Part shown: one piece after another, positions 1 to 64,000 of the stretch | How positions within the stretch are numbered: the stretch's first letter is position 1 | Layout: each line of letters starts with the position of its first letter | Assembly (NCBI GenBank): GCA_963727485.1 | Contig: CAVSGM010000001.1 | Coordinates: forward strand, 274,006 to 338,005 | Origin: an uncultured delta proteobacterium | GTDB lineage: Bacteria; Myxococcota; Myxococcia; SLRQ01 | Length of the DNA: 64,000 nt | Reading direction: 5' to 3' | Program-made: the position numbers and the translations under genes | Notes under the pieces: generated by a model | The model's database searches: none | Told to the model about the DNA's origin: nothing | Seen by the model: only the letters and a program-made list of their open reading frames with translations

Positions 1-677
1 GCCAGGTCCGGGACGACGACGGGAAGGTGGTCTCGAAGCGGGGCCCGGAGGCGGTGCGGCAGGTGATCTCCCGGCACACCGCCCGGGAGATGACGCAGAT
101 GATGGAGACGGTGGTCGAGCCCGGGGGCACCGCGCCGCTGGCCGCCGTCCCCGGCTACGTGGTCGCCGGCAAGACCGGGACCAGCCAGAAGGTCGACCCG
201 GTCACCCACGGCTACTCCCTGGAGAAGCGGGTGGGATCCTTCGGGGGCTTTCTCCCCGCGGACGATCCCCGATTGGTGATCCTGGTGGTGATCGACGAGC
301 CTTCGGGGGTGAAGTACGGCGGCATCGTCGCAGCCCCTGCGTTCCGGGAGATCGCCGAGAACGCCATGCGTTACCTGGGCATCCCCCCGTCCCGGCCCGT
401 GGACGACGCCTCGGCCCCCGTGGCCCGGGCGGCGCCTCCCCCGGACGACGGCAGCGACGTGGCGCTGCCCCCGGACCTCACCCCGCCCCCGGCGGGGAAG
501 ACCCTGGTCCCCGACCTCTCGGGCCTCGACCTGCGCCGGGCGGTGGGGCTCCTCGCCTCGCGCCACCTCGAGGCCCGGGTCGACGGCTCGGGCCTCGTCG
601 CCAAGCAGACCCCCGCCGCCGGCGCCATCGTGAGCCCCGGCCAGTCCGTCGCCCTCACCCTCTCGCCCACCGGTTGA
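1..677 (+). CDS. ftsI: Peptidoglycan D,D-transpeptidase FtsI / PBP3-like, C-terminal part (5' truncated by window edge)
   Basis: ORF 27..677 contains the transpeptidase KTG motif (GKTGTS) and a Pro-rich C-terminus. No stop upstream to base 1. Sits directly upstream of murE with a TGA/TTG-ATG overlap, as in dcw clusters. Confidence 0.75.
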   Translation, partial: QVRDDDGKVVSKRGPEAVRQVISRHTAREMTQMMETVVEPGGTAPLAAVPGYVVAGKTGTSQKVDPVTHGYSLEKRVGSFGGFLPADDPRLVILVVIDEPSGVKYGGIVAAPAFREIAENAMRYLGIPPSRPVDDASAPVARAAPPPDDGSDVALPPDLTPPPAGKTLVPDLSGLDLRRAVGLLASRHLEARVDGSGLVAKQTPAAGAIVSPGQSVALTLSPTG

Positions 678-2239
678 CCATGCGCCTCGACCAGGTCCTC
701 CACGGCGTCGACGCCGAAGCCCTCGCCGGCCCTCCACCGGACACGGTGGAGGTGCGCGCGGTGGCCAGCGACTCGAGGCAGGCGGGCCCCGGGGTCCTCT
801 TCGTCGCCGTCCCCGGGACCACCGGCGACGGCCACGCCTACGCCCCCGCGGCGGTGCGCGCCGGGAGCCCGGCGGTGATCGTGGAGCGGCAGGTCGACGG
901 CCTCGCCCCGGCCACCGTCCTCCGGGTCCCGAGCAGCCGGGTGGCCCTGGGCCAAGCCGCGGCCAACCTCCACCACCGCCCGGGCGAGCGCCTGCCCCTG
1001 GTGGGGGTCACCGGGACCAACGGCAAGACCACGGTGACCTGGCTCCTCGAGGCCATCGCCGCCGCCGCGGGCAGGCGGCCCGGGGTCCTCGGCACCACCG
1101 GCCACCGCTTCGCCGGCACCACCCGCGCGGCGACCCACACCACCCCCGGCCCCGAGGCCCTCCAGGCCCTCCTCGCCGAGATGCTCGACGCCGGCGTCGA
1201 CCTGGGGGTGATGGAGGTCAGCAGCCACGCCCTCGATCAGGCCCGGGTCGAGGGGTGCGCCTTCCGGGTGGCGGCGTTCACCAACCTCACCCGGGATCAC
1301 CTCGACTACCACCCGAGCCTCGAGGCCTACTTCGAGGCCAAGGCGCGCCTCTTCGGCCCCTACCTGGCCGACGGCGGCGCCGCGGTGGTCAGCGCCGACG
1401 ACCCGGCGGGGGTGCGCCTCCTCGACCGCCTCGCCGGCCGCCCGGTGCGCCGGATCGCCACCTCGGTGGCCCCGGCCCGCACCGAGCTCGCCGTGACCCC
1501 CGGCCCCGCCGGCGACGTCGAGTGGGTGCGCGCCGAGTCGGCGCAGGTGGGCCTCGAGGGGATCCGGGCCCAGGTCGCCCTCCCCTCCGGCCGGGTCCTG
1601 GCGCTGACCTCGCCGTTGACCGGGGTCCACAACCTCCAGAACCTCCTCACCGCCGTGGGCCTCGCGGTGGCCCTCGGGCTCCCGGACGACGCCATCGCCA
1701 GGGGCCTGGCCACCTGCCCCGGGGCCCCCGGGCGCCTTGAGCGGGTCGCCGACAAGGCGTCGCCCCCGCGCCACGTCTTCGTGGACTACGCCCACACCGA
1801 CGACGCCCTCGCCCGGGTCATCGGGGCCCTCCGGGAGCTCTCGCCCGCCGGCACCCGCCTGGTGGTGGTCTTCGGCTGCGGCGGCGACCGGGACCCGGGC
1901 AAGCGCCCGCTCATGGGGAAGGCCGCCTGCGGGGGCGACACGGTGGTGGTCACCTCGGACAACCCCCGGTCCGAGGATCCCAGGGCCATCATCGACGACA
2001 TCCTCCCGGGGATGGACCCGAACACCCCCCGGGCCGTGGAGCCCGACCGGCGGCGCGCCATCGAGCTGGCGGTGGGCCTCGCCCGCCCCGGCGACGTGGT
2101 GCTGGTGGCCGGCAAGGGGCACGAGACCACGCAGACCGCGGGCGGTGTCGCCCGCCCCTTCGACGACCGGGTGGTGTGCGCAGGCGCCCTCGCCGCCGTG
2201 GCACCCGGGACACGAGAGGTCGAGAAACCCCAGCCCTGA
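674..2239 (+). CDS. murE: UDP-N-acetylmuramoyl-L-alanyl-D-glutamate--2,6-diaminopimelate ligase MurE
   Basis: 521 aa. Mur ligase ATP-binding P-loop GVTGTNGKTTVT, conserved Mur ligase middle and C domains. Position between ftsI and murF. Start TTG 674 or ATG 680. Confidence 0.9.
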   Translation: MTMRLDQVLHGVDAEALAGPPPDTVEVRAVASDSRQAGPGVLFVAVPGTTGDGHAYAPAAVRAGSPAVIVERQVDGLAPATVLRVPSSRVALGQAAANLHHRPGERLPLVGVTGTNGKTTVTWLLEAIAAAAGRRPGVLGTTGHRFAGTTRAATHTTPGPEALQALLAEMLDAGVDLGVMEVSSHALDQARVEGCAFRVAAFTNLTRDHLDYHPSLEAYFEAKARLFGPYLADGGAAVVSADDPAGVRLLDRLAGRPVRRIATSVAPARTELAVTPGPAGDVEWVRAESAQVGLEGIRAQVALPSGRVLALTSPLTGVHNLQNLLTAVGLAVALGLPDDAIARGLATCPGAPGRLERVADKASPPRHVFVDYAHTDDALARVIGALRELSPAGTRLVVVFGCGGDRDPGKRPLMGKAACGGDTVVVTSDNPRSEDPRAIIDDILPGMDPNTPRAVEPDRRRAIELAVGLARPGDVVLVAGKGHETTQTAGGVARPFDDRVVCAGALAAVAPGTREVEKPQP

Positions 2240-2323
2240 CGCCCGGGTCCGCCCTGGCGCAGAGGCTGCAAACCATAGGATGACCGCACCCGCCGGGTGC
2301 AACAGGTCGCGACAGAGACGTAC

Positions 2324-3791
2324 ATGGCCGTCTTCACCCTCGACGAGATCCTCCGCGCCACCGGGGCGCGGCACCGGCCCGCCGCCACGGCGACGGGCAC
2401 GGCGTGCGCCGGTGTGTCCACCGACACCCGGACCCTCGAGCCCGGGGACCTCTTCGTGGCCCTCGCGGGCGAGCGCTTCGACGGCCACCGCTTCCTGGAG
2501 AAGGTCGCCGAGCGCGGGGCCTACGGGGCGGTGGTGGAGAAGGGTCACCCGGCCGTCGACGCCGCCGCCGGGGAGCTCGCCCTCTTCGAGGTCTTCGACA
2601 CCCTCCGGGCCCTCGGCGATCTCGGCCGCCTTCCACCGCGGGCGCCTCGCCCGGGTCCCGGTGGTCGCCATCACCGGCTCCAACGGGAAGACCACCACCA
2701 AGGAGCTCACCGCCGCCGCCCTCGGCGCCGCCCTCGGTCCCGGGCTCAAGACCCGCGGCAACCTCAACAACCTCATCGGCGTGCCCCTCACCCTCTTCGG
2801 CCTCGAGCCCGACCACCCGTTCGCGGTGGTGGAGATGGGCATGAACGCCCTGGGCGAGATCGCGCGGCTCACCGAGATCGCCGAGCCGAGGGTGGGCGTC
2901 ATCACCGGCGCCGGGCCGGTGCACCTCGAGGGGCTGGGGACGGTGGACCGGGTGGCCCAGGCCAAGAGCGAGCTCTACCGGGGGCTGGCCGACGGGGCCA
3001 CCTGCGTGGTGAACCTCGACGACCCCCGGCTCCCGGCGCTCGCCGACGCCGCCGGGGCGGGCACGCGCCTGGTGCAGGTGACCTTCGGCACCGGGGCCGG
3101 CGCCGACTTCCGCCCGCTGGACGTGGTCCAGGACGCCGAGGCCGGCCTTGGCTTCGAGGTCGAGGTGAGCGCGCGCTTCGGGGGCGGGCGCCTCCCGGTG
3201 CGCCTCCCGCTCCTGGGGATCCACAACGCCCTCAACGCCTGCGCCGCGCTGGCCGCCGCCGCGGCCCTGGGCGCCGACCTCGAGGCCGCCGCCGCGGGCC
3301 TGGCGCAGGTCGAGGGGGTGGGGCGGCGGCTGCGCCGGGCCGAGGGGCCCCGGGGGAGCCTCCTCCTCGACGACTGCTACAACGCCAACCTCGCCTCCAT
3401 GGAGGCGGCGCTGGCCACCGGGCGCGCCGTCGCCGACGCCCGGGGCGGGCGCCTCATCGCCGCCCTCGGGGACATGCTCGAGCTCGGTGGCGCCGAGGCG
3501 AGGATGCACCGCCGCCTCGGCGAGCTCGCCGCCGAGGCCGGGGTCGCCACCCTGGTCGCCTTCGGGCCAAGGGCCCAGGCGGCCCATGACGCCGCCGGCG
3601 ACGCCGTGCCCCGGCGCCTCCACACCGACGATCCCGCCGCCGCCGCCGCCTTCCTCGCCGAGGGCCTCGCCCCCGCCGACGTGGTGCTGATCAAGGGCAG
3701 CCGGGGGATGGCCATGGAGCGCATCGTCGAGCGCCTCGAGGTCGGCGCCGCGGCCACCGCCCCGGCTCCGGGGAAGGGAGGCCGCCGATGA
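2324..3791 (+). CDS. murF: UDP-N-acetylmuramoyl-tripeptide--D-alanyl-D-alanine ligase MurF; reading frame broken by an apparent +1 single-base insertion near 2624
   Basis: The N-terminal ~100 aa (MAVFTLDEIL...TDTRTLEPGDLFVALAGERFDGHRF...ALGDL) are in frame 2. The rest (AAFHRGRLARVPVVAITGSNGKTTTKEL... to the stop at 3791) is in frame 0. Deleting one G from ctcgGccgcc (2621-2630) restores a canonical full-length MurF of about 488 aa. Stop overlaps the mraY ATG (ATGA). Confidence 0.85.
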
Positions 3792-8575: not shown

Positions 8576-8577
8576 CC

Positions 8578-10916: not shown

Positions 10917-10918
10917 TC

Positions 10919-12781: not shown

Positions 12782-14013
12782 ATGGCAAAGCGAGGCGAGC
12801 TGATCGTCGGACTCGACATCGGGACCACCAAGATCTGCGCGATCGTCGGTGAGGTCACCGAGACCGGGTCCATCGACATCATCGGAATCGGCACCCACCC
12901 GTCCAAGGGGCTGCGCAAGGGCGTGGTGATCAACATCGAGTCCACGGTGGACTCCATCAAGAAGGCCATCGAGGAGGCCGAGCTCATGGCCGGCTGCGAG
13001 ATCAGCACGGTCTACGCCGGCATCGCCGGGGGGCACATCAAGGGGATTCAACAGCCACGGCGTCGTGGCGGTGAAGGACAAGGAGGTCACCAAGACCGAC
13101 GTGGACCGGGTGATCGACGCGGCCAAGGCCATCGCCATCCCCATGGACCGCGAGGTGATCCACATCCTCCCCCAGGAGTTCATCGTCGACGACCAGGACG
13201 GGATCCGCGAGCCCCTCGGGATGAGCGGGGTCCGCCTCGAGGCCCAGGTGCACATCGTCACCGGCGCGGTCACGTAGCGCCCAGAACATCATCAAGTGCG
13301 CCAACCGCTGCGGCCTCAACGTCGCCGACATCGTCCTGGAGCAGCTGGCCAGCTCCGAGGCGGTGCTCACCGACGACGAGAAGGAGCTGGGGGTGGCCCT
13401 GGTGGACATCGGCGGCGGCACCACCGACATCGCCATCTTCTCCGAGGGGGCCATCGTCCACACCAGCGTCCTGGCGGTGGGCGGCAACCACCTCACCAAC
13501 GACATCGCGGTGGGGCTGCGCACGCCCACCCACGAGGCGGAGAAGATCAAGCAGAAGTACGGCTGCGCCATGAGCGCCATGGTCGACCGCGAGGAGACCA
13601 TCGAGGTCCCCAGCGTCGGCGGCCGGCCGCCCCGGGTGCTCTCCCGGCAGATCCTCTGCGAGATCATCGAGCCCCGGGTGGAAGAGATGTTCATGCTGGT
13701 GCAGCGCGAGCTCCAGAAGTCGGGCTACGAGGACCTGCTGGCCAGCGGGGTGGTCATCACCGGCGGCTCCACGCTGCTGGAGGGGATGCCCGAGCTCGCC
13801 GAGGACGTGCTGGGCCTGCCGGTGCGGCGCGGGCTGCCCCGGGGAATCGGCGGGCTGGTCGATGTGGTCAGGAGCCCGATGTACGCCACCGGCGTGGGCC
13901 TGGTGCTCTACGGCAGCCAGAACACCGACGCCAAGCACTTCCGGGTGCGCGACGAGAACGTCTACGGGAAGGTCCGGGGCCGGATGAAGTCGTGGCTGGC
14001 GGATCTCTTCTAG
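12782..14013 (+). CDS. ftsA: Cell division protein FtsA; frame broken by two apparent +1 single-base insertions (about 13046 and 13275)
   Basis: Three consecutive pieces in frames 2, 0 and 1 together form a complete FtsA. Piece 1: MAKRGELIVGLDIGTTKICAIVGE...IAGGHIKG. Piece 2: FNSHGVVAVKDKEVT...VHIVTGAVT. Piece 3: SAQNIIKCANRCGLNV...VDIGGGTTDIAIFSEG... to KSWLADLF. Removing a from gggAttcaac and t from acgTagcgcc restores a contiguous ~409-aa actin-like ATPase. Confidence 0.88.
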
Positions 14014-14097: not shown

Positions 14098-15387
<1,290 letters not shown>

Positions 15388-26323: not shown

Positions 26324-26352
26324 CGTGCCGGGCGTGTGCCCGGCGGGTGCCT

Positions 26353-26942: not shown

Positions 26943-28004
26943 GAGATCAGGGGGGGCGGGCTTCGGGGCGCGCGGCGTGGGGGCGGCTCCGGCGGTCCCG
27001 GTGATCGCCGCGCCGTGGGGGCGCTCGTCGAGGGTCAGGGGCGTGACCGCGTAGCGCTGGCCGTCGGTGCGCACCCGCACCGGCCCCCCGACCACCGTCA
27101 CCGCCTCCGGGAGGTGCAGGGGCGGGCAGCCGCGGCCCGGGCGGGGCCGGCCGGTGAGGAGCACCCGGGCGCCGCTGCGCACCAGCCGCTCGAGGACCGC
27201 CTCGCCGGGCCCGCAGCGCCCGGGGCCGGTGGAGACGATGGCCACCGCCGGGGACACCGCCCGGAGAAACGCCGCGGAGGTCGAGGTGTCGGCGCCCCCG
27301 GCGGAGACCCGGAGGACGTCGACGTGGCCCACCGCCGACCCCAGGGGGGTCTCCACGTCCGCGGTCCCCTCGCCGCCCCCGGGGAGCGCGCCGGCGGTGA
27401 GGTAGCGGAAGGCGCCGTCGGTGAGGAGCAGCGCCAGCGACCGCCCGGCGGCGTCGTGGACCTTCACCCGGGCGCCGCCTACCACCGCACCGTTCACCGC
27501 CATCACCCGGGCGACCACGCCGTCCCCGAGGTCGATGCGGTCGCCGGGGCGGGCGGTGGTGTGGTGGCCGGCGGCGAGGGTGCCGTAGCCCAGGCACTCG
27601 AGGCTGGTGCAGGTGAAGTCACGGCCGTAGTCGAGGAGGACGCCCCTTGGGACCGTGTCGTCGGCGGTCCCCGGCTGGCCGTCGCGACCGGCGAGGAGCA
27701 TCACCAGCCCGCCCACGGTGGAGGTGGCGAGGTGGCTGACCACCACGTGGTCCGGGGGCAGGGCGTGGTGGCGGCGCAGGGTGGTGAAGAGGACCGCGGT
27801 CGAGGGGCCCGGGGGGCCGCCGTCGATGAGGAGGCTGTCCCCGCGCGGGGCGTCGACCAGGGTGGCCTCGCCGGCGCCCACGTCGAGGACGGTGATCTCC
27901 AGGACCTGCTTGCCGGCGAGGGCCGGGGCGGTGGGGACCGGGGCGGCGGTGCGGCAGCCGGAGGCGGCGAGGACCAGGACGACGGCGGCGGCGCGGAGGC
28001 GCAT
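26943..28004 (-). CDS. Lipoprotein with metallo-beta-lactamase fold (ComEC C-terminal-domain-like); 3' end uncertain because the ORF reads through a G7 homopolymer with no stop
   Basis: Lipobox VLAASGC. ITVLDVGAGEATLVDAPRGDSLLIDGG is the MBL-fold motif of ComEC/Rec2-type hydrolases. As written, the ORF continues to 26124 through the neighboring regulator gene in another frame. One extra C in the 26951-26957 run would create a TGA, giving a protein ending ...PKPAPP. Confidence 0.55.

Positions 28005-37346: not shown

Positions 37347-37347
<1 letters not shown>
35251..37347 (+). CDS. malQ: 4-alpha-glucanotransferase (amylomaltase) MalQ
   Basis: 698 aa. GH77 motifs (GVVMPLYALRG, DLPVGVHPDGYDVW, RIDHVMGLHRLFWVP). 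Confidence 0.85.
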
Positions 37348-39541
<2,194 letters not shown>

Positions 39542-49396: not shown

Positions 49397-50363
49397 GACC
49401 CCTCTGTCGGCCAGCCTCCGCGCGGCCACCCGGGACGTGGTCCTGGGCGCCGGCCCCCGGCTGCCCCGGAGCGCGGTGGCCGGGCTCCTCCGGCGCGCCA
49501 CCCGTGGCCTCGAGGTGGCTCTCTGCCTCCACCGGGTGGGCCCGGTCCGGGCCACCGATCCCCTGCCGTGGATGACCATCCCGGAGGACACCCTCGACGA
49601 CTTCCTCGAGCTCGCCCGGGGTGTGAGGCTCACCGTCACCTTCGACGACGGCTACGCCGACGCGGTGGCCTGGCTCCGGGCGCGGGCGCCGCGCCACCCG
49701 GAGGTGGACTTCGTCCTCTTCGTCTGCCCCGAGAAGCTGGAGACCCGGGCGGGCTTTCGCTGGGATCTCTTCGAGCGCCGCCGCGCCGAGGGCGCCGATC
49801 CCGGGCCCCTGCGGCCCTTCGTCGACGCGCCCTTCGATCCCGGGTCGGAGAACCATCGGCCCGAGCTCGTGGGCCTCGCCGACCGGCCGGAGCTGGCGCT
49901 GGCCACCGTCGAGGCCTGCCGGGAGATGGCGGCCCTGCGAAACGTCCGCCTCGGCGACCACGGCGACACCCACCTGCGCCTCACCGGCCTCGCCCCCGAG
50001 GTCGCCCGCGCCGAGCTCGAGGCCTCGGCGGCCCACTTCGCGGCGCGCTTCGGGCCTGCCGAGGACTTCGCCTTCCCCTTCGGGGTGCCGGGGAGGGACT
50101 ACGACGGGACCCACGTGGCCACCCTGCGGAGGCTGGGCTACCGCCGGCTGTGGAGCACGGCGCCCCGGGCGTTCCGGCCCGAGGCCCGATCGGGCGAGTC
50201 AGGTGCTGCCGAGGTTTCCGGTGATGGGGAACTGGCATGCGAAGGCCCTCGCGGTGTGGGTGGCGGCGTCGGCCATGAGGCGGGGGCCCCTAGAGGACCC
50301 CGTGCTCGACGAGATAGCGGCGGGTGCGCTGGGCCAGTGACCAGGCGGGCGGGCTGGCCCTGA
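49395..50363 (+). CDS. Polysaccharide deacetylase family protein (NodB homology domain); 3' end uncertain
   Basis: 322 aa. TFDDGY motif and downstream His motifs. The last about 60 aa are Gly-rich and overlap the convergent GNAT gene by about 225 nt, suggesting a 3' frame error. Confidence 0.65.
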   Translation: MTPLSASLRAATRDVVLGAGPRLPRSAVAGLLRRATRGLEVALCLHRVGPVRATDPLPWMTIPEDTLDDFLELARGVRLTVTFDDGYADAVAWLRARAPRHPEVDFVLFVCPEKLETRAGFRWDLFERRRAEGADPGPLRPFVDAPFDPGSENHRPELVGLADRPELALATVEACREMAALRNVRLGDHGDTHLRLTGLAPEVARAELEASAAHFAARFGPAEDFAFPFGVPGRDYDGTHVATLRRLGYRRLWSTAPRAFRPEARSGESGAAEVSGDGELACEGPRGVGGGVGHEAGAPRGPRARRDSGGCAGPVTRRAGWP

Positions 50364-51283
50364 CCGCGGCGGCGAGGCCGTGGCGAACCGGAGACCAGAG
50401 GCGGCTCGCCAGGGGCAGCGTGGCCCACCGGCCCCACCACCCGGACGTCGGTGGCGTAGTGCCACTTGTAGTCCTCGTCGCCGTAGAGGAACTCGAAGCT
50501 CCGATCGCCGGCGTGGTGGCTCGCCTCGAGGAGGTGGTGGAGGAGCAGGCGGCCCGGGGCGTAGCGGGAGAGCGCCGGGTCGTAGACGGGCATCCAGTAG
50601 TGGAACCGGCCCTGCCAGGTGGCCCCGAGGTGGATCGCCGCCGGCCGGGTGCCCGCCCGGAGGACGGCGACCTGGAGCAGGCCCCGGCGCCACAGGGCGC
50701 GGAAGAGCTCGGCGTTGCGCCGGGGCGCGAGGAAGTCCGGCGCCCCGGTGCGGCGGTACTGGTCGCGCTTCCAGGTGAGGGCCAGCTCCAGGAGCTCCGG
50801 GGCCGGGTGGTGGAGGTAGAGGGCGACCGGGCCCACCTCCTCCTCGAGGCGCCGGAGGCGACGGCGGGCTTCGGAGAAGGTGTTGCGCTGCCGCGCCTTC
50901 ACCGAGGCCTCGAAGTCGGCCCACCGGGGGAAGCGCGCCCAGTCCACGAAGGGCGCGGCGCCGAAGCCGGGCTCGGGGAGGCGGCCGAGGAACACCTCCG
51001 CCGGCACCACCTCCACCACCGCGTTGCCCAGCAGGCTCAAGGGGCGCTCGGCGCCGGTGGCCGGGCCCAGGGGCGCGTGGAGATCCACGAAGGCCACGTC
51101 GGCCAGCAGCCGCCCGCCGGCCTCCACCGCCCGGTAGCGGCGGCCGTCCACCGCGAGCTCCACCAGGCGCGCCTCGGCCCCGGGGGCCCAGGCCTCGGCG
51201 AGGGCCTCGAGGAACGGCGGGGCGTCGAAGAAGGTCTCCCGGCTCGCGTCGGCGGCGAGGACTTCAGGCACGGAGGGCATCAC
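50138..51283 (-). CDS. FemAB/CelD-like GNAT-fold acyltransferase (EPS-locus type); 3' end uncertain
   Basis: 381 aa as written. BioF2/CelD-like core ending ...FEFLYGDEDYKWHYATD. After this, a -1 shifted frame gives a more protein-like tail (...ATLPLASRLWSPVRHGLAAAVRASPPAWSLAQRTRRYLVEHGVL, stop near 50290), while the in-frame tail is Gly/Pro/Arg junk. Confidence 0.6.
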   Translation of the reverse strand: MMPSVPEVLAADASRETFFDAPPFLEALAEAWAPGAEARLVELAVDGRRYRAVEAGGRLLADVAFVDLHAPLGPATGAERPLSLLGNAVVEVVPAEVFLGRLPEPGFGAAPFVDWARFPRWADFEASVKARQRNTFSEARRRLRRLEEEVGPVALYLHHPAPELLELALTWKRDQYRRTGAPDFLAPRRNAELFRALWRRGLLQVAVLRAGTRPAAIHLGATWQGRFHYWMPVYDPALSRYAPGRLLLHHLLEASHHAGDRSFEFLYGDEDYKWHYATDVRVVGPVGHAAPGEPPLVSGSPRPRRRGQGQPARLVTGPAHPPLSRRARGPLGAPASWPTPPPTPRGPSHASSPSPETSAAPDSPDRASGRNARGAVLHSRR

Positions 51284-52865
51284 GCTGTCTCCCTTCCTGG
51301 GTGGGGACCACCGGCGCCCGGCGCTTGGGCCGCGGGCGCACCTCGGCGGCCGGGGCCCGGGCCACCGCGCCCGGGGCCAGGGGGCGGTCGAGGACCACCC
51401 CGGGGCCGACCCGGGCGCCAGCGCCGATGGTGATGGGGCCGAGGAGGGTGGCGCCGGGGCCGACCTCCACGTCTCGCTCCAGGGTCGGCGCGCCCCGGAC
51501 GCGGGTGGCGGCGTCCACCGCGTCGCCCAGGGTCACGTGCTGGGCGAGGCGGACCCCCGAGGCGACCCGGGCGGCGTGGCTGATGGTCAGCCCCTGGCCG
51601 TGGTCGAGGCGCAGCCCCGGGGCCAGGTCCGCGGCCCAGTGGATCTCGGCGCCGAAGAGGTGGCGCAGGCTCCGGGAGAGGACCTGGGGCAGGAGCGGCA
51701 CCCCGGCCCGGTGGGCCGCCTGCATGGTCCGGATGAGCAGGAGCATCTGCCCCTCGGGGCGGGCGAGGAAGCGGCGCTGCGGGTGGTCCTCGCGGGCGGC
51801 GCGGGCGTCGGCGGTGACGGCGGTGGCGAGGAAGCCCAGGGCGTCGGCGACCCGGTAGCGCCGGGAGCCCGCATTGGCGGCGGCGGCGTGGCGCATCATC
51901 TCCGCGGCGGCGGCGACCAGCGACCCCGAGGCCACCCGCACCCCCCGGAAGTACTCGATGCCGTAGGCCAGCGTGGTGCCGGCGATGGCCGGGCCCTCGA
52001 GCCCCACCCGGTCCACCCCCACGGCCACGGCCATCACCCCCCGGGCGAGGTGCCGGGTGCGCCTGGGCGCCAGGACCACCGAGAGGAGCACCGGCCGGGA
52101 GACCGGGCTCACCCGGGGCAGGAACGCCCAGGGATCGGCCTCGATCACGGTCGGGTGCTTCCGGGCGATGATGTGGTCGTAGCGCCCGTAGCGGAAGGCC
52201 CGGCCGAGCCAGACGTCGAGGGCCTCGTGGTCGGAGGCGTGGATGGTGTCGGCGTCGTCCACCAGGGTGAACTCGAGGCCCCGGTCGGCGAGGCGGATGC
52301 CCAGCTCCCGGTCCTCGGAGCGCAGCAGGGTCCGGTCGAAGCCCCCGGCGGCGAGCAGGTCCACCCGGCGCACCGAGACGTTCCCGGTGGAGAGGCGAAG
52401 CGGCGAGATCGGCGCCCCCCGGAGGGCCTCGCGCTCGAAGGTGGCGAGCTGCCGGGCGTGGAAGCGTTCGAAGAGGGGCATCGTGTGGATCCCCGGCGCC
52501 GGACGGATCCGCCCCAGGACCACCCGCGGCGGGGCGGTCTCGTGGGCCAGGAGGTGGCCCTCGAGGAAGCCCGGGCGCACCTGCATGTCGTCGTCGACGA
52601 AGACCAGGATCGTCCCCTCGGCCAGCCGCGCGCCCCGGTCCCGGGCGGCCGCGGCCCCGGCGTTGGCCTGGCGCTCGAGGCGCAGGTCGTAGCGCACCGC
52701 GAGGCCGGCGAGGCCCTCGGCCGCCGGGGGATCCGAGCCGTCGTCGACCACGATCACCTCGTAGGCGTCCGGCGGGAGGGTCTGGGTGTCGAGCTGCGTC
52801 AGCAGCCGGCGAAGGGACTCCGGGCGCCCGAAGGTGGGCACCACCACCGAGACGCGGATCATCAT
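51264..52865 (-). CDS. GT2-family glycosyltransferase fused in-frame to a serine O-acetyltransferase-like (left-handed beta-helix, hexapeptide) domain
   Basis: 533 aa from ATG 52865. N-terminal MMIRVSVVVPTFGRPESL...VIVVDDGSD (GT2 DXD region). C-terminal about 170 aa with CysE-like helical region (RAGVPLLPQVLSRSLRHLFGAEIH) and hexapeptide repeats. No stop separates the two parts in the given sequence. Confidence 0.6.
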   Translation of the reverse strand: MMIRVSVVVPTFGRPESLRRLLTQLDTQTLPPDAYEVIVVDDGSDPPAAEGLAGLAVRYDLRLERQANAGAAAARDRGARLAEGTILVFVDDDMQVRPGFLEGHLLAHETAPPRVVLGRIRPAPGIHTMPLFERFHARQLATFEREALRGAPISPLRLSTGNVSVRRVDLLAAGGFDRTLLRSEDRELGIRLADRGLEFTLVDDADTIHASDHEALDVWLGRAFRYGRYDHIIARKHPTVIEADPWAFLPRVSPVSRPVLLSVVLAPRRTRHLARGVMAVAVGVDRVGLEGPAIAGTTLAYGIEYFRGVRVASGSLVAAAAEMMRHAAAANAGSRRYRVADALGFLATAVTADARAAREDHPQRRFLARPEGQMLLLIRTMQAAHRAGVPLLPQVLSRSLRHLFGAEIHWAADLAPGLRLDHGQGLTISHAARVASGVRLAQHVTLGDAVDAATRVRGAPTLERDVEVGPGATLLGPITIGAGARVGPGVVLDRPLAPGAVARAPAAEVRPRPKRRAPVVPTQEGRQRDALRA

Positions 52866-53362: not shown

Positions 53363-53388
53363 CTTCGACTCCTGGTTCGCGGAAGGGT

Positions 53389-55160: not shown

Positions 55161-56677
55161 GCCGTACCTCCCTGGAGGGCCATGGCCCCCGTCCGGATCC
55201 GCGCGGTGGCCCGGGCCCCGAGGGCCCCCGACGCCACCGCCAGGTTCGCCGCCGCCCCGCCGAGGGCGCTCATCACCAGCAGCGGCATCCAGTCCTGGAG
55301 CCCGATGTCGCCGAAGGCCTGGACCTCGAAGGCGATCACCGCCACCACCGCCGCCATCGCCACCACCCGCCGCCCGGGGGTGCGGGCGAAGCGGTGGGCC
55401 CTGACCCCGATGAACAGGAGGATTGGCAGCACCATCCAGATCGCCGAGAACCCCACCAGCCCCCCGGCGGTGAGCAGCCAGAGGACGCTGTTGTGGGGGA
55501 GGAAGCGGTACTGCTTGAAGAACTGCGAGAGGTCGTAGGCGGGGACGAGCTCCTCGTAGGGGTGGCCGAACCCCCGGCCGAAGAGGGGGTGGCCGTGGAG
55601 GGTGTAGACGAGGTTGAGGTCCTCGACCTCCCGCGACTTGCTCGACGAGTCCTGCTGCTCGCCCACCGAGTGGAGGGCCTCCACCGGGGCGAAGATCTTG
55701 GAGTGGCTCCCCAGCCCCATCACCACGTAGGCGAGGAGCAGGGGGCTCGCGGCCACCCCCACCTTGAGGAAGATCCCACGCAGGGGCCGGCGCAGGAGGA
55801 GGACGAAGGCGAGGAGGGCGTAGATCAGGGCCACGTAGGCCAGGCGCCGGTCGTTGAGGATCATCACCACGCCGATGAACGGCGCCACGGTGACGAAGGC
55901 GAGCGTGCGCAGGAGGTCCCGGTGCTCCATCAGCCCGTGGAGGAGGAGCACCAGCACCAGCACGTAGAGGACCGAGTCGGAGTGGGTGGTGATGTAGTGG
56001 GCCTGGAAGCCCACCGGGCGGCAGTAGCGCAGCCAGTACCAGAGCCCGAGGAGCCCCCGGATCACCGTCACCGCCACCAGGCCCACCACCAGGACCCGGC
56101 GGACGCCGTCGGTGGAGAAGGCGTGGAGCGCGAGGACGACGAGGACCGGGAGCCAGAGGAGCTGGCGCATCTGCCACAGGGACTGCTGCACGTCGCCGCC
56201 CCGGGCGAGCCCGAAGACCTCCAGGCCCAGCACCGCCAGGAAGCACACCGCCAGGGCCAGGATCAGGGGCCGGAGCGCCGGGTCCAGGGGGGGCACCTCG
56301 CCCTTGAGCCGCCGGATCACGAGCGCCACCAGCATCAGCAACAGGCCCACCTCGAGGAGCGAGAGGTGGACGGCGCCGAAGCCGAGGGAGGTGTTGAGGT
56401 TGTCGTAGAGGAGCTTGCCCGGGGCGTAGAGGGGCGAGCGCCACCGGCCCTGCATCGGGTTCGACGAGGGGTCCGGGAGGAGCACCGACCCCAGGACCAC
56501 GGCGGTCATCAGCCAGGAGAAGGGCGCCCGGGCGAGGAGCCACACCGCGAGCACCACCAGCGCCGGCGCCAGGGCGAACACCGGCCGGGTGGCCGCGCCG
56601 AGGAAGGCGCTGGCCACCATCACCACCGGGAGCACCAGCCACAGGGTGCGGCGGCGCAGCTTTCGGGTCGGGGTCAC
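55157..56677 (-). CDS. O-antigen ligase/polymerase-like (Wzy_C domain) polytopic membrane protein
   Basis: About 506 aa. At least 10 TM helices. Periplasmic loop motif FLPHNSVLWLLTAGGLVG matches the Wzy_C signature H-N-x-x-L-x(4)-x-G-x-x-G. Probable GTG start overlapping the upstream gene's stop (GTGA). Confidence 0.7.
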   Translation of the reverse strand: MTPTRKLRRRTLWLVLPVVMVASAFLGAATRPVFALAPALVVLAVWLLARAPFSWLMTAVVLGSVLLPDPSSNPMQGRWRSPLYAPGKLLYDNLNTSLGFGAVHLSLLEVGLLLMLVALVIRRLKGEVPPLDPALRPLILALAVCFLAVLGLEVFGLARGGDVQQSLWQMRQLLWLPVLVVLALHAFSTDGVRRVLVVGLVAVTVIRGLLGLWYWLRYCRPVGFQAHYITTHSDSVLYVLVLVLLLHGLMEHRDLLRTLAFVTVAPFIGVVMILNDRRLAYVALIYALLAFVLLLRRPLRGIFLKVGVAASPLLLAYVVMGLGSHSKIFAPVEALHSVGEQQDSSSKSREVEDLNLVYTLHGHPLFGRGFGHPYEELVPAYDLSQFFKQYRFLPHNSVLWLLTAGGLVGFSAIWMVLPILLFIGVRAHRFARTPGRRVVAMAAVVAVIAFEVQAFGDIGLQDWMPLLVMSALGGAAANLAVASGALGARATARIRTGAMALQGGTA

Positions 56678-58134
56678 TCGTCCACCCCTCCGAGGTAGGG
56701 GAGGCGCAGCTGCCGCTCGACCTGCCAGGGCAGGAGCAGCCGCTGGCCCAGGACCTCGAGGCCGAGGGCGAAGCCCATGGACACCAGCATCCCCGCCAGG
56801 ACCCCCATCACCAGGACCAGCGGGACGTTGGGCTTGTCCGCCTTCTCCGGGAGCTTGGGCCGGCCGATGACGCTGTAGCGGTACTTGAACGCCGCGTTCG
56901 CCACGTCGAGCTCGATGGTGGCCGAGCTGATCCGGCCGAGCAGATCGTCGTAGCTGTCCAGGGCGCGCAGCAGCTGGTTTCTGGCGCTGGCGATGTCCGG
57001 GTCCCGGTTCTCCGAGGGATCCCCCTCGGCGACCTCGTTGCGCGCCAGGTCCACCGCCCGCTGGGCGAGGGTGGTGTCGGTGCGCAGGGTCCCCTCGGCG
57101 CGCTGGGCCGCGTCGTAGCGGGCCTGGAGCTGCGCCGCCTGGGCCCGGAGGTGCTGGAGCTCCGGCGAGGGGGCCTCGAGGGCCAGGATGCTCTGCTTGA
57201 GCGCCACGATGTCCGGGTGGCCCGGGGTGAGCACGGTGCTCTTCTCCCGGAGGGTGGCCCGGAGCTGGGCGAGCCGTCCCTCGCGGGTGGCCTCCACCGC
57301 GGCGATGGCCTGCCGCTTGGCGGAGAGATCGCTGGCGAGCTGGGTGATCTGGAGGTTCTGGCTCCGGCTCCGGCGCCGCGTCGTCACCGCCGGCTTCTCG
57401 GCCTTCACCTCCTGCTTCTGCCGGCTCTGCCGGAGCTTGCGCAGGGTGACGAGGCCCTGGTCCACGCGGCTCTTCTCCTGGGCGGCGTGGGAGTCGAGGA
57501 CCTGGAGGGCGTCGGTGATGCCGCTGACCTCCCGGCTCCGGCGCTGCTCCAGGAACCGGTCGGAGAGGAGCCGGGCGAGGAGCGCGGTGGTCTCCGGGTC
57601 GAACCAGCTCACGTAGATCGGAGATCACGTTGTTCCCCGCCGACACGCCAAGGTGCTCGCGGAGCAGCTTCACCAGCGCGTCCTTGGTCTCCGCCGGGGT
57701 CAGGGGCCCGAGGATCAGGTCGTGGAGCTGGTCCTTGAGGCGGAGGATCGGGGTGCGCGAGGCCTTGAACCGGCGCTCGAGCTGGGCCTCGTCCACCACC
57801 CACTCCAGGTTCTGCTCGGAGAGGAGCATCGGCGCCGCGGCCCGGGTGGGGTCGTCGCCGTACATGGGGATGGTGCGGTGGGGGTTGGCGAGGGCCGGCA
57901 TCTGGTAGTCGGTCATCGCCAGGATCCGGGCCTCGGCGCTGTAGGTCCGGGGCACGGCGAAGAGGAAGCCCACGGTGAGGGCGACGACCCCCAGCGCCAC
58001 GCCGAACATCAGTCGGCGGCGGCGCGCGAGGGCGACGCGCACGTAGGCGAGGACGTCTCCCACCTCCCGCAGGCCCAGGGCGGGCTCGGGGGGCGGCGGG
58101 GGGGCGACGGTCTGGAGCTCGGCAGGATGGGGCA
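56674..58134 (-). CDS. Polysaccharide chain-length determinant protein (GumC/Wzz/Wzc N-terminal-domain family); frame broken by an apparent +1 insertion near 57614
   Basis: N-terminal part (MPHPAELQ...RRRRLMFGVALGVVALTVGFLFAV, TM1, ...LVKLLREHLGVSAGNNVISDL) in one frame. The C-terminal coiled-coil periplasmic domain and TM2 (VSWFDPETTALLARLL...LVLVMGVLAGMLVSMGFALG...) are in the +1 frame. Removing one base from gatctAcgtg joins them as ...ISDLVSWFDPE... Confidence 0.75.
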
Positions 58135-58140
58135 TGGCGT

Positions 58141-58542
58141 TCACCGCGCCTCCCGGCGCGGCGCCTCCACGGGCTCGCCGGCCAGCGCCTGCACGGCGGC
58201 GCGGAACTGGCCGGGGGTGAATGGCTTGAGCAGGTAACCGTTGGCCCCGAGCGCGATGGCCAGCGCCCGGTCCTGGGGCATCCACCGGCCGGTGGTCATC
58301 AGGATCGGGGCCTGCGCCCCGTGGGGGTGCCGGCGGACGGCCTCGCACACGTCGAAGCCGGAGATGGTGGGCAGGCCGATGTCCACGCACACCAGGGCCA
58401 GGGGCCCCTCGTCGAGGAGGGTGAGGGCGGTCCGGCCGTCGTCGGTGGCCTCCACCTCGAAGCCCATCCGGGAGAGGAGCACCGTCAACAGCTGGCGGGC
58501 GCTGGCATCGTCTTCGACCACGAGAGCTCTGCGAACAGCCAT
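58141..58542 (-). CDS. Response regulator, receiver domain only (CheY-like)
   Basis: 133 aa. Conserved receiver residues (VVEDD..., phospho-acceptor region ALVCVDIGLP, T and K in LMTTGR...YLLKPF). No output domain. Confidence 0.8.
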   Translation of the reverse strand: MAVRRALVVEDDASARQLLTVLLSRMGFEVEATDDGRTALTLLDEGPLALVCVDIGLPTISGFDVCEAVRRHPHGAQAPILMTTGRWMPQDRALAIALGANGYLLKPFTPGQFRAAVQALAGEPVEAPRREAR

Positions 58543-58554
58543 GGGAGTCTCACT

Positions 58555-58722
58555 TCAGAGGCGCGGGTAGAGGTAGCGGAGGGCCAGGAGGTAGAGGGCG
58601 GCGACGCCGGCCATGGTCACCACCACCTGGAGCAGGGCGCGGCGGGGGCGCTCGGTCCGGGCGAGGAGCACCGGCACCGCGATGGTCGCCAGGAGGATCG
58701 AGGTGAGGACCAGGGACTTCAT
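58555..58722 (-). CDS. Small (55 aa) two-TM membrane protein, translationally coupled to the upstream OM-protein gene
   Basis: Hand-translated: MKSLVLTSILLATIAVPVLLARTERPRRALLQVVVTMAGVAALYLLALRYLYPRL. Its ATG overlaps the TGA of the 58719..59982 gene (ATGA). G/C-biased third positions. Below the ORF-track size cutoff. Confidence 0.4.
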   Translation of the reverse strand: MKSLVLTSILLATIAVPVLLARTERPRRALLQVVVTMAGVAALYLLALRYLYPRL

Positions 58723-59982
58723 GGCGTCCGGCCTCCGCGGGTGGGATCGTCCTTGGCCGAGGTCTCGCCCGGGCGCACCTCACGGCCGGTGCGCGGATCG
58801 AGGGCGCGCTTCTCGGGGGTGGTGCCGAAGAAGGCGCGCAGCCCCACGAACACGTCCCAGCCGCTGCCGTCGAGGCCCGGCCCCCGGTACCGCTGGGGGA
58901 GCTGCTGGTAGTAGAAGCGCAGCCCGGTCTGGAGCTGGACCCCGGTGGTGAGGGTGTAGCTGCCCTGGGCCCCGAGGGACTGGAGGGCGCCGTCGATGAG
59001 GGGCCCCCGGGCGAGGATCCACACCTGGTCCATGAGGAGGCTGGCGCTGCCCCGACGGGTCAGCTGCAGGGTGGCGGCGGCGTGGATGCCGGCCCGGGAC
59101 TCGAGGGAGCCGTCGAGGCGGTTGAGGGCCGGGCCGGTCCACAGCCGCCCCTCGAGGTCGAGGCTGGAGCCGGGCCAGCGGAACCGGTGGCTCGCCGCCA
59201 GCGAGAGGGCCGGGTGGATGAGGAAGGCGTCGGGGCCCAGCGGCAGCCGGGCGTCCCGGGAGACCACCACCCCCGCCGAGGGCGTGAGCCGGGTGTCCGA
59301 GGCCAGGCGCCGCGCCCAGTCGAGGCTGACCCCGGCGAGATCGTAGGCGGGGCCCGTGGAGAACTCGGTGTGCTGCCAGGTGAGGTGGCCGCTGACCAGG
59401 TCGCGACCGGTGACCGCCTGGCGGAGCGTGAGAATCCGCCCTGGGGCCGTAGCCCAAAGGCAGCACCGCCCGGGCGAGGGTGTCCATGCCCCCGGAGGCG
59501 TCGTAGCCGGCGCTCGCCTCCCAGGTCTGGGTGGGGCTCGCCCGGTAGCGCACGGTGGCCAGCGCGGTGGCGGCGCCGACGGTGATCCGGCTCACCTGGG
59601 GCACCAGGTCGGGGAGGGCGCCGTCGGGGGTGAGGGAGAAGAGCCAGGTCTCCTGCCCATAGCGGGCCCACCCGGCGGCGAAGACCTCGAAGCGGGGGCC
59701 GAGGCGGGCGGTGTAGGAGAGCCGACCGCTCTGGAGCAGGGTGGGCGCCGGCTGGAGGGCGCCGGAGAGCCAGGCGGCCCGGAGGCGGTAGTCGAGGACG
59801 AGCTGCTGGGTCTCCCCGGTGAGGGCCAGCGCCATCTCGGGGCTGATGGCCAGCTCCATCCCCGCGCCCCCGGGCTGGGCGCTGAAGGCGTCCGGCGCCC
59901 GGGCGTGGGTGTCCACCGAGACCCCGGCCTGGACCTGGGGCACCACCGCGGCGGCGAAGAGGAGGCTCAAGACGAAGGACAT
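58719..59982 (-). CDS. Secreted outer-membrane beta-barrel-like protein of EPS locus (unknown function); frame broken by an apparent +1 insertion near 59415-59425
   Basis: ATG 59982 with GGAG upstream. Signal peptide MSFVLSLLFAAAVVPQVQA. The N-terminal 180 aa are in one frame (...DTLARAVLPLGYGP). The remainder (...ILTLRQAVTGRDLVSGHLTWQHTEF...SYTLTTGVQLQTGLRFYYQQ...VFVGLRAFF...) is in the +1 frame. Alternating beta-strand-like pattern. Confidence 0.65.
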
Positions 59983-59984
59983 GG

Positions 59985-62119: not shown

Positions 62120-62122
62120 CGT

Positions 62123-63491
62123 CTAGCTCGCCCCCCGGGCGCTGAACACCGCCGGGATGGTCTTGACCAGGAGCTTGAGGTCCAGCGGCAGGCTCCAGTG
62201 GTCGATGTACTGCATGTCGAGGAGCATCCAGCGGTCGAAGGAGATCTCGTTGCGGCCGCTGACCTGCCAGATGCAGGTGATGCCCGGGCGCACCGAGAGC
62301 CGCCGGCGCTGCCAGGTCTCGTAGAGGTCGACCTCGGTGGGGATGGGCGGCCGGGGGCCGACCAGGCTCATCTCGCCGCGCAGCACGTTGAGGAGCTGGG
62401 GCAGCTCGTCGATGGAGAAGCGGCGGATGAACCGGCCGATGGGCGTGATCCGCGGGTCGTGGCGGATTCTTGAACACCGGCCCGTCCTGCTCGTTGAGGG
62501 CCTCGAGGGCGGCGCGCCTGGCCTCGGCGTCGATCACCATCGAGCGGAACTTCAGCATGTCGAAGGGGCGGCCGTGGAGGCCCACCCGCCGCTGGCGGTA
62601 GAAGATCGGACCGCCGTCGAGCTTGATGAGGGCCGCCACCACGCCGAGCAGCGGCGAGAGCACCAGGAGGGCCACCGCCGAGGCGGTGACGTCGAGGAGG
62701 CGCTTGGCGGCGCGCTGGTAGGGCTTGGCCTCGTCGGGCCAGTAGTGGATGTAGCCGTCGTCGGCGCCGGCGGCCCGGGCGCGTCCGAGGCGGAAGGTGG
62801 GCAGGGGCACGGCGAAGGCCAGGCCCAGCGACTCGCAGATCGAGGCCACCCGGGAGAGGATCTCGGCGTTGGCGCCGGCGTCCTCGGCGACGTAGACCTC
62901 GTCCACCGGGTTGTCCACCAGCACCTGGCAGAGCCCCGGGAGCTCCCCGAGGACCTGGGGGCCGTCCACGTCGGGGGCGTCGCCGGGGACCCGGACGAAG
63001 CCCTTGATCCGCACCCGGTCGCCGAGGGCGTCGGCGGTGGCCCGGGCCAGGGCGCCGGTGCCCACGATGATGGCCTCGGCGGCCGGGGCGTCGGCGCCGT
63101 AGCGCGGCCGGAAGATGAACAAGCGCAGGAAGACGATGGGTGCGAAGACCACCGGGACCAACAGCTCCAGGGTGGGCATCGGCGTGCCGTCGGGGAGCAG
63201 GAGCTCGCTGCCGGTGAGCACCACGATGACGCTGGCGACCAGCAGGGAGGTCACCCCCAGGTCCTCGACCCGGGCCCGGAGCCGGGTGGGGTCGTAGTGC
63301 CCGAGGATGAGGCCGAGGAGGAGCCAGAGGCAGGTCACCAGGCCCAGGACCAGGAGGTGACCCTGGAGCCCGAGCGCCAGGCTCCGGCCGTCGGCGACGA
63401 GGAGGCTCCCCGTCCAGATGATGGCCAGATCCGTCGCGAGGTTCACCCTCGCGGTCCGGCCAGGCAGTAGCCGATCCGCAGCCGCGGTCAT
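62123..63491 (-). CDS. Initiating polyprenyl-phosphate sugar-1-phosphate transferase (WbaP/EpsB-type bacterial sugar transferase); frame broken by an apparent +1 insertion near 62455
   Basis: N-terminal TM region plus Rossmann-like domain. Catalytic C-terminal domain motifs: [24 protein letters not shown], then after the shift (K)[40 protein letters not shown]. Removing the extra a from aagAatccgcc restores a continuous protein. Confidence 0.8.
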
Positions 63492-63675
63492 GATGCCCCC
63501 CCGGGCGCTGTGGCGCCGTCATCGGTCCGAAGCAGGACCCGACCCGCGACCTGCGGCCGGGCCGCCCGACAGCGGCAACGCTGGCCTGACGAGGAGCAAG
63601 GGCCGTGCCGCCGGCCCCCTGGGGGAGCGAAGTCCCCGATTCCCCCACACCGTGTGGGTGTGGGTACGATTGAGC

Positions 63676-63707
63676 CCCCCGGGGCGGGCGCGGATCCGCC
63701 CCGGGGG
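63676..63707 (-). terminator. 12-bp perfect GC stem-loop (CCCCCGGGGCGG-N8-CCGCCCCGGGGG) downstream of the GH44-paralog stop
   Basis: Perfect inverted repeat 82 nt after the stop at 63789 on the minus strand. No U-tract. Confidence 0.3.
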
Positions 63708-63788
63708 TGCACAACTTGACCCGAGGCCGGATCCTACCGGGCAAACTCTGCTGCGCCCCGCCGGGTCACCGGGACCCCGGCCGCGCGG

Positions 63789-64000
63789 CTAGGGCGTGAG
63801 CACGAAGGTGGTGACGCTCTGGGCGGGCAGGGTGGCCACGAAGGCGTTGGTCGCCGAGAGGGTCGGCGCAGGGACCGGGGCCGGATCGGCATTCCCTGCC
63901 GTCACCGCGTAGGCCGCCACCGTGCCGTAGGTCGTGGTCCCGGTGACCTGGATCCCGGCGGAGAGATCCCCACTCGAGCGGTTGATGGCCACCACCACCA
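63789..64000 (-). CDS. C-terminal end of a second GH44-like hydrolase paralog (gene continues beyond the window)
   Basis: The C-terminal 69 aa (...VVAINRSSGDLSAGIQVTGTT...PAPVPAPTLSATNAFVATLPAQSVTTFVLTP) align residue-for-residue with the C-terminus of the 47679..49396 protein (...VVALNKSSAPLTVALRVSG...PAPVPAGTLKPVVANGFRDTLPAMSVTTYVLAP). Confidence 0.6.
   Translation of the reverse strand, partial: VVVAINRSSGDLSAGIQVTGTTTYGTVAAYAVTAGNADPAPVPAPTLSATNAFVATLPAQSVTTFVLTP

Follow-up and report, generated by a model that had tools for sequence, protein, structure and literature searches.

Frame-breaking indels in a 64-kb stretch of a deposited Myxococcota-like genome are very probably long-read consensus errors concentrated at GATC

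Introduction

A documented pipeline assembles metagenomes from Nanopore reads alone, using Flye and a single Medaka round, and its authors report Nanopore-associated errors in metagenome-assembled genomes (MAGs) of low coverage (PMC12313526). In assemblies built only from R10.4.1 reads, the error-prone sites were found to coincide with modification motifs, with GATC being dominant in several species; the emphasis of that study was on strand-specific substitutions (PMC11610603). Genuine pseudogenes and programmed frameshifts of the prfB and dnaX type also interrupt the reading frame within a recognisable gene.

Here, we describe frame breaks in a stretch of 64,000 nucleotides, referred to as the window, which has a GC content of ~74% and derives from a Myxococcota-like uncultured bacterium. 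The breaks resemble the residual indels of long-read-only MAGs (Nanopore, metaFlye, one Medaka round) in that they are single-base events by which conserved genes are fragmented or scrambled, in that their density varies among assemblies of the same species and in that independent assemblies do not carry them; moreover, the contig names of a sister assembly match the style of a Nanopore MAG pipeline (PMC12313526). They differ from the usual errors of such MAGs, which are deletions in long homopolymers, as the window, whose platform is presumably Nanopore, contains mostly +1 insertions outside homopolymers. Like the Nanopore errors at modification motifs (Dam GATC, Dcm CCWGG), the errors of the window concentrate on one short palindrome, GATC. 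Unlike the substitutions described in PMC11610603, the lesions are insertions (GATC to GAATC or GATTC), and the modification of GATC is putative here. In contrast to pseudogenes and to frameshifts of the prfB and dnaX type, the breaks are not conserved in close relatives, have no slippery site, strike single essential genes several times and bear no signature of relaxed selection.

Results

Number and detection of frame breaks

Same-strand frame switches inside single genes were located using a codon-phase Viterbi track and the continuity of Pfam domains, and most of the indels were placed at the base level by nucleotide alignments with same-species contigs. The window contained 15 frame-breaking indels (~1 per 4.3 kb), a density much above that of a healthy genome, comprising 13 firm events, one that was common to a sister assembly and one that was suspected. 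A first-pass annotation had estimated about 1 frameshift per 6 kb; the breaks that it reported were real, but their density was slightly higher. Nine to ten of the ~54 genes in the window were affected: murF, ftsA (two events), ftsZ (three), glgB (three), a deacetylase gene, a GNAT gene, wzz, an epsX-like gene and a sugar transferase gene, to which an MBL-fold lipoprotein gene, probably hit at its stop codon, is added. Eleven of the 15 events were +1 insertions, located in runs of 1-2 bases. The statement that the indels lie in intact-looking conserved genes was borne out, and all five of the sequence contexts quoted for them were found and confirmed in the window.

Several further candidates were rejected. 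The junctions at 16751, 52877 and 53411 were normal gene boundaries with identical calls in the contigs L086 and L002; the Viterbi phase was unbroken at a gene near 28350, where a gene of corresponding extent (343 aa) is called in the contig L005; and at a supposed hidden compensated pair (23579/23890), the window ORF was continuous and the deletion belonged to L005. Two earlier suspicions were also dropped, as there was no window-specific gap relative to L002 across 48139-50195, where an indel at a GH44 start had been proposed, and the GT2-hexapeptide gene call, proposed as a possible fusion, was identical in a relative. The tRNA and Rfam scans gave no matches.

Frame breaks in murF, ftsA and ftsZ

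The murF gene (2297..3791, plus strand) contains one extra base at 2624-2627 (CTC[G]GCC); one frame encodes the N-terminal Mur-ligase domain and the next one the middle and C-terminal domains (Pfam). In a tblastn search with Corallococcus MurF, frame +2 ended at 2623 (query residue 121) and frame +3 started at 2628 (residue 123), and the Viterbi change point was at 2619. This search was restricted to the true MurF orthologue, since a wider query gave spurious matches in high-GC alternate frames. The break had initially been placed at 2567 from a gap against the ENA contig L001; this gap is an insertion of L001 itself. The extra base at 2624-2627 is also carried by L001, and its presence in both would call for a systematic error specific to this context or for a genuine lesion.

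The ftsA gene (12782..14013, plus strand) contains an additional T at 13047, which splits a GATC (GA[T]TC), and an additional C at 13273, and it is therefore read in three frames. The FtsA, SHS2 and FtsA Pfam domains were accordingly found in three different frames, and L001 lacks both extra bases and keeps its phase. After repair, FtsA was 409 aa in length and aligned without gaps to the public FtsA P0129 with 91% identity. In ftsZ (14098..15387, plus strand), we found an additional C at 14356, an additional C at 14611 and a loss of two bases at 14633, which together produce a net shift of zero. As a result, a 429-aa ORF persists in the unrepaired gene with residues ~87-178 (about 92) scrambled. 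The Tubulin domain lies in two frames and FtsZ_C returns to the first frame (Pfam), while L001 is in phase at all three sites. The repaired FtsZ showed 98.6% identity to that of L001 over 429 aa; without repair, the identity collapses at residues 87-178.

Frame breaks in glgB and the MBL-fold lipoprotein gene

The branching enzyme gene glgB (37347..39541, plus strand) contains one deletion of a base at ~37483-37495, another at ~37503-37509 and an additional A at 38086, which splits a GATC (G[A]ATC). The N-terminal tail of GlgB is rich in Lys and Ala, and the phase of its AAGAAG repeat moves from 0 to 2 to 1; CBM_48 and the catalytic domain occupy separate frames (Pfam), with a Viterbi change point at 38087. 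The comparators for 22-40 kb, L004 and L005, are two sister contigs of one ENA sample, and with 87-89% identity and 180-373 gaps they were decisive only at 38086, where both lack the A and the phase changes only in the window.

At the 3' end of the MBL-fold lipoprotein gene (minus strand, ~28025 to 26950), a loss of one base is suspected in a coding-strand C7 run at 26950..26956. The coding signal stops near 26990 (Viterbi), and the present ORF continues to the next in-frame stop at 26124; one added C in the run would end the protein at ...KPAPP-TGA. The run is C7 in L004 and C6 in L005. Judging from the reading frame, we suspect that the stop codon was lost to a 1-base undercall.

Frame breaks between 49 and 64 kb

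The first-pass annotation had suspected indels at the 3' ends of the deacetylase and GNAT genes, and both were found. The polysaccharide deacetylase gene (49395-50341 after repair, plus strand) has an additional C at 50195, and the Acetyltransf_6 GNAT gene (50290-51280 after repair, minus strand) has an additional C, given as the plus-strand base, at 50416; both bases are missing from L002. The repaired deacetylase (314 aa) aligned gap-free with its L002 counterpart at 99.7% identity, and the repaired GNAT (329 aa) showed 99.4% identity.

The remaining three genes lie on the minus strand, and their inserted bases are given for the plus strand. The chain-length determinant gene wzz (56674-58144) has an additional G at 57620 adjoining a GATC, which places the Wzz and GNVR domains in different frames (Pfam). 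This G is missing from both L002 and the independent contig L003, and the repaired Wzz (489 aa) showed 99.8% identity. In the epsX-like gene (58719-59982), an additional A is present at 59431/59433, where the window reads GAGAATC, L002 reads GAGATC and L003 reads GGAATC; the repaired product (420 aa) matched the L002 protein with 100% identity. In the sugar transferase gene (Bac_transf, 62123-63491), an additional T at 62467 splits a GATC (GA[T]TC), and Pfam positions 1-69 and 65-178 of Bac_transf fall in two frames. L002 lacks this T and keeps its phase, and the repaired protein and its L002 counterpart are both 455 aa long and aligned gap-free.

Comparison with independent assemblies

Overall, repairs in seven genes yielded gap-free, full-length proteins with 90-100% identity to relatives. 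Throughout the out-of-frame segments, third-position GC was 95-100% in the true frame with no sign of decay, and the Viterbi phase track was continuous except for single-base jumps. In the base-level comparison, 11 sites were specific to the window and only the murF +1 was common to L001; the relatives gave no resolution at 26950-26956 and at the two sites in the glgB tail. The window's indels are missing from the same-species ENA contigs (96-98% identity), which over 15 kb have ~35-40 of their own elsewhere.

Two independent Logan contigs of the run ERR11594398, L003 and L086, belong to the same strain (99.9% identity over 5.7 kb) and covered 2 of the 15 sites. L003 (2,456 bp) differed from the window by two substitutions and by exactly the two predicted insertions (57620 and 59431/59433), and L086 (3,279 bp), which lies in a region without a predicted indel, differed by three substitutions and no indels. 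A scan of GTDB genomes with Ddl revealed that the species is not represented there, the best match having 62% identity (outgroups only), and exact searches with FtsQ and MraY found no further independent contigs on record.

The deposited record

The public protein collection lists four products that depend on the frameshifts and attributes them to a 1,252,212-bp NCBI/ENA contig, from which the window very probably derives. The four products are P0127, a C-terminal fragment of FtsA; P0134, a C-terminal fragment of Wzz; P0259, the unrepaired 380-aa GNAT with an out-of-frame tail; and P0258, a 182-aa C-terminal fragment that is the sole EpsX contribution of this contig. In addition, the Ddl of the window is 100% identical to P0126 of the same contig. 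Because products that arise only by frameshift are publicly listed from the 1.25-Mb contig, the errors belong to the record as deposited and are no later addition. No repaired products are on record for this contig in the public protein collection, in which neither the scrambled FtsZ ORF of 429 aa nor the deacetylase ORF of 322 aa was found. The indels of ftsZ, glgB, murF, the deacetylase gene and the Bac_transf gene are presumably present in the deposited record as well.

GATC enrichment and sequence context

Four of the 11 insertions split a GATC, compared with a baseline of 1.56% (P=1.8e-5), and seven were no more than 3 nt from one (P=5e-7), whereas none of 62 isolated insertions in the comparators split or neighboured a GATC. 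Five events fell within 1,586 nt (P=0.004), which is not as expected from uniform random noise. All 11 insertions that could be placed precisely lay outside homopolymers of at least 3 nt, and only one of the 58 homopolymers of at least 6 nt was suspect. The earlier view that the indels are not driven by homopolymers thus stood, but its remark that some fall in homopolymers was overstated. It had also called the occurrence in mixed sequence odd; the mixed contexts were confirmed, but the strong GATC enrichment provides a specific explanation. An enrichment of inserted A or T bases, which had also been raised, was not observed (4/11 against 26% A+T; binomial estimate, P about 0.3).

Mismatches between the window and ENA contigs at GATC numbered 13 against 11.7 expected, 8 against 5.3 and 12 against 5.4, the last being the only excess. 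Of the five substitutions that separate the Logan contigs from the window, two were GATC to GATT. Both the enrichment of substitutions at GATC and the effect of a GAGATC flank were weak or non-significant, and Pfam revealed no methyltransferase genes in the 64-kb window.

Discussion

The indels are very probably consensus errors of a deposited long-read MAG rather than features of the organism's DNA, as judged from the sequence comparisons. A poorly polished consensus, one of two origins suggested in the first-pass annotation, is the best explanation, since repairs restore conserved proteins and independent assemblies are without the indels. The GATC enrichment points to a modification-linked long-read consensus error. 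Base modification at GATC, combined with read support that is weak in places or drawn from mixed strains, may disturb the long-read signal, and the assembler and polisher would then fix an extra base in the consensus. We infer a role of methylation in the GATC insertions, and the platform was probably Nanopore with a Flye/Medaka-type pipeline; platform and project are deduced here, as searches of literature and supplements for ERZ25039500 and ERR11594398 returned no matches. A variant of this explanation, in which the consensus fuses two alleles of co-assembled strains with no part for methylation, is possible but rather unlikely. The window's GAGAATC at 59431-59433 does resemble a merger of GAGATC (L002) and GGAATC (L003), one ENA sample holds two sister contigs, and the errors are clustered; however, the available strains do not differ in allele near most of the insertion sites, and strain mixing alone leaves the GATC enrichment unexplained.

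The presence of the indels in the deposited record and the murF +1 common to two assemblies could instead suggest genuine mutations, so that the organism, or its dominant population, would harbour true pseudogenes like those of a lineage that is degrading or depends on a host. This reading is largely refuted and is highly improbable: ftsZ and ftsA, which like murF are essential, are broken at three and two sites, respectively; no other decay is visible, as GC3 remains at 95-100% in the true frame and the repaired proteins are 99-100% identical to those of relatives; same-strain L003, with only 2 SNPs in 2.4 kb, lacks both testable indels; and relatives of 96-98% identity are broken at other sites. 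It is similarly improbable that the murF +1 is a genuine, inherited frameshift in this essential peptidoglycan gene, with which the organism copes by recoding or by means of a split MurF, or, more broadly, that the change of GATC to GAWTC reflects a real mutational process at modified GATC. Synthetic indels deliberately placed into a clean public sequence, the other origin suggested previously, would fit insertions in mixed sequence outside homopolymers and the fact that several of the broken products to be expected, the scrambled 429-aa FtsZ among them, are missing from the public record. We consider this exceedingly improbable, because the indel-dependent ftsA, wzz, GNAT and epsX products are public from the source contig without any repaired counterpart, the events are clustered and GATC-enriched rather than uniformly random, and public sister assemblies are similarly damaged. 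Decoding of the breaks by ribosomal frameshifting or transcriptional slippage has nothing specific in its favour; high-GC alternate frames stay open over long stretches, which makes the shifted ORFs look long. With no slippery heptamer or homopolymer tract common to the sites, two or three shifts of mixed sign per gene and no conservation in near-identical relatives, its probability is close to nil.

The value of the consensus-error finding is practical rather than biological, in that it identifies an assembly artefact and gives a warning for annotation. The earlier caution that annotation and inference of essentiality would be misled was justified, as the ftsZ ORF stays at 429 aa despite ~92 scrambled residues, and such damage can be overlooked by quality control based on ORF length. 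The deposited genome leads to false pseudogene calls, to truncated or chimeric proteins and to essential genes being wrongly inferred as missing, and the garbled P0127, P0134, P0258 and P0259 in public collections can seed spurious families. The concentration of the insertions at GATC offers a simple handle for motif-aware polishing of both the window and its sister assemblies.

Detection and placement of frame breaks

Because long open reading frames (ORFs) were present in all six frames of the window (GC content, 74%), third-position GC was used together with a Viterbi model of codon phase for which intact genes served as the training set. A same-strand phase switch without a coinciding stop codon was scored as a frameshift, the frames of Pfam domains provided independent confirmation, and gaps were polarised by asking which sequence of each alignment pair shifted codon phase. 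In total, 15 events were identified, affecting 9-10 of the roughly 54 genes in the window; the load of about one frameshift per 6 kb claimed in the first-pass annotation for intact-looking genes was borne out and had been slightly understated. The window-specific events were single-base insertions of T at 13047 and 62467, of C at 13273, 14356, 14611, 50195 and 50416, of G at 57620 and of A at 38086 and 59431/59433, together with a two-base loss at 14633. Viterbi change points were located 0-4 nt from most of them.

Pfam assignments revealed a complete dcw cell-wall and division cluster (1-16.2 kb; ftsI, murE, murF, mraY, murD, ftsW, murG, murC, murB, ddl, ftsQ, ftsA and ftsZ), a GlgE-pathway block (29.7-39.5 kb; glgE, treS-mak, malQ and glgB), a small acyl-activation block (39.6-45.6 kb) and an exopolysaccharide (EPS) cluster on the minus strand (45.6-63.5 kb). 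Homologues were from Myxococcota/Deltaproteobacteria, and tRNA and Rfam scans of the window gave no match.

Affected genes

In MurF, the N-terminal domain was found in one frame and the middle and C-terminal domains in another; the break was placed at 2624-2627 with a Corallococcus MurF as outgroup. The FtsA domains were dispersed over three frames. The FtsZ tubulin domain extended over two frames, with the C-terminal domain back in the first. In particular, the three indels in ftsZ (14098-15387, plus strand) net to zero and leave a 429-residue ORF of the right length in which residues ~87-178 are scrambled, so that tests for pseudogenes or completeness that rely on ORF length would let it through. 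The Wzz and GNVR domains occupied different frames, as did profile positions 1-69 and 65-178 of Bac_transf.

The CBM_48 and catalytic domains of GlgB were also in different frames. Within its Lys/Ala-rich N-terminal tail, AAGAAG repeats take two successive -1 phase steps, after which the conserved N-terminus is in frame with the ATG at 37347. This apparent extension (37347-37640, plus strand) comprises ~90 residues, is histone-H1-like in appearance with a weak Pfam HC2 match, and varies greatly in length between the window and two comparator sequences, L004 and L005. The gene for the MBL-fold lipoprotein has lost its stop codon, and lengthening a C7 run by one C would restore an ending of KPAPP followed by TGA; since both comparators are also short there, this indel is kept as suspected. 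A 533-residue ORF (51264-52864, minus strand) joins a GT2 glycosyltransferase domain to C-terminal hexapeptide-repeat acyltransferase repeats; an indel-made fusion in the window was ruled out, as comparator sequence L002 gave the same 533-residue call.

Comparison with related assemblies

The closest public relative was the 354-kb contig_38491 of ENA ERZ25039500, accompanied by its sister contig_38488; comparators L001, L002, L004 and L005 were taken from these two contigs. Their identity to the window was 96.3% in the dcw cluster and 98.3% in the EPS cluster. The ENA contigs were broken elsewhere, with mraY, murD and murB split, ftsW-murG-murC fused and ~35-40 events in 15 kb. This damage was uneven, at about one indel per 400 bp in the dcw cluster versus one per 3 kb in the EPS cluster. 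The 22-40 kb locus was covered by both sister contigs (L004 and L005), each breaking different genes, at 87-89% identity to the window with 180-373 gap openings.

Both comparators also lack a segment (33 bp in L004, 32 bp in L005) at window positions 26322-26354, just past the stop of a PD40-repeat gene. A perfect 7-bp GC hairpin (GCCGGGC-GTGT-GCCCGGC) lies within this segment, which probably represents a true intergenic polymorphism and is possibly terminator-like.

Two Logan contigs from run ERR11594398 represented the same strain as the window. L003 (2,456 bp) differed from the window by two substitutions and exactly the two insertions predicted there, and L086 (3,279 bp) by three substitutions and no indels, none being predicted in that stretch.

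Repair and origin of the frameshifts

Upon deletion of the inserted bases, and with two bases put back in ftsZ, seven products became full-length and gap-free: FtsA (409/409 residues, 91% identity with FtsA from a public MAG), FtsZ (429 residues, 98.6%), Wzz (489, 99.8%), an EpsX-like protein (420, 100%), Bac_transf (455, 90%), GNAT (329, 99.4%) and a deacetylase (314, 99.7%). GC3 in the true frame was 0.95-1.0 within every shifted segment. Repair, the lack of decay, the independent assemblies and the different damage in relatives all argue against the indels being real in the organism. Genuine pseudogenes are contradicted by the essential nature of the affected genes, several events within single genes, the absence of decay and a same-strain assembly without the two insertions in the stretch it spans; programmed recoding, by which such breaks would be decoded, is contradicted by sites with neither a slippery motif nor conservation. 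The frameshifts are not a biological feature. A real lesion stays live only at murF, where it is unlikely. The murF +1 (CTC[G]GCC) also occurs in L001 (~1680) and is the sole frameshift common to both sequences among comparable sites, with GATC in the window versus GACC in L001 four bases upstream.

The public record bears on whether the window itself had been altered. The window Ddl and response regulator were 100% identical to public proteins P0126 and P0121, both attributed to a 1,252,212-bp NCBI/ENA contig. Products that exist only through the frameshifts also had exact public matches from this source contig, namely a 216-residue FtsA C-fragment (P0127) and a 312-residue Wzz C-fragment (P0134); a 380-residue GNAT whose tail is out of frame (P0259) and a 182-residue EpsX C-fragment starting at an internal GTG (P0258) were likewise public, frameshift-dependent and from the source contig. 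Exact-sequence look-ups found no repaired product attributed to the source contig, and an intact control product from it was on record (P0261). Since broken products of the source contig are public and no repaired ones are, we assign the indels to the assembly as deposited. The predicted broken products of ftsZ, glgB, murF, the deacetylase and Bac_transf were not found in the public collection, and for this reason we only infer, by extension, that their indels are also in the deposited record. The first-pass annotation had proposed either a poorly polished consensus or deliberate perturbation; the former was right, while the latter is contradicted by the frameshift-dependent public fragments and the non-random distribution of events.

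Association with GATC

All 11 insertions with a precise position lay outside runs of at least three identical bases, although the window contained 58 homopolymers of at least 6 nt. Four insertions (13047, 38086, 59433 and 62467) split a GATC that was intact in a comparator, yielding GAATC or GATTC (4/11 versus a 1.56% baseline, P=1.8e-5). The insertion at 57620 abutted a GATC, and those in murF and at 50195 were 2-3 nt from one, so that 7/11 were within 3 nt (P=5e-7). In the ENA contigs, 62 single-base insertions occurred in isolation, and none of them split a GATC. Events were also clustered, with ftsA and ftsZ accounting for five in 1.6 kb (P=0.004). Two of the five Logan-window substitutions (15262 in L086 and 59342 in L003) were GATC in the window versus GATT in Logan, so in that dataset, too, the motif appears to be prone to error or polymorphic. 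Window-ENA substitutions showed no clear GATC enrichment and a GAGATC flank effect was only marginal; neither was relied on. GATC occurred 330 times in window 1-64000, about twice our composition estimate (~150), so the genome does not avoid this motif.

The indels most likely arose as consensus artefacts during long-read assembly. Their preference for GATC points to a modified base in this motif that would disturb basecalling, and we infer both the sequencing platform and GATC methylation for the window assembly. Weak or mixed-strain local support may contribute; GAGAATC at 59.43 kb resembles two merged alleles. Published work fits a consensus artefact. In R10.4.1-only assemblies, positions prone to error coincide with motifs for base modification, among which GATC dominates in several species (PMC11610603), although that paper stresses substitutions whereas the window lesions are insertions. 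In a large MAG project on soils and sediments, Nanopore reads were processed with metaFlye and only one Medaka round, and Nanopore-associated errors were reported for low-coverage MAGs (PMC12313526). The nearest GTDB relative (L008) is a MAG from that project, and its contig name, in Flye style, is similar to those of the ENA comparators. The value of the finding is as a quality warning for the deposited record, and the window clearly illustrates both GATC-linked insertion errors and how an ftsZ ORF can stay open although scrambled.
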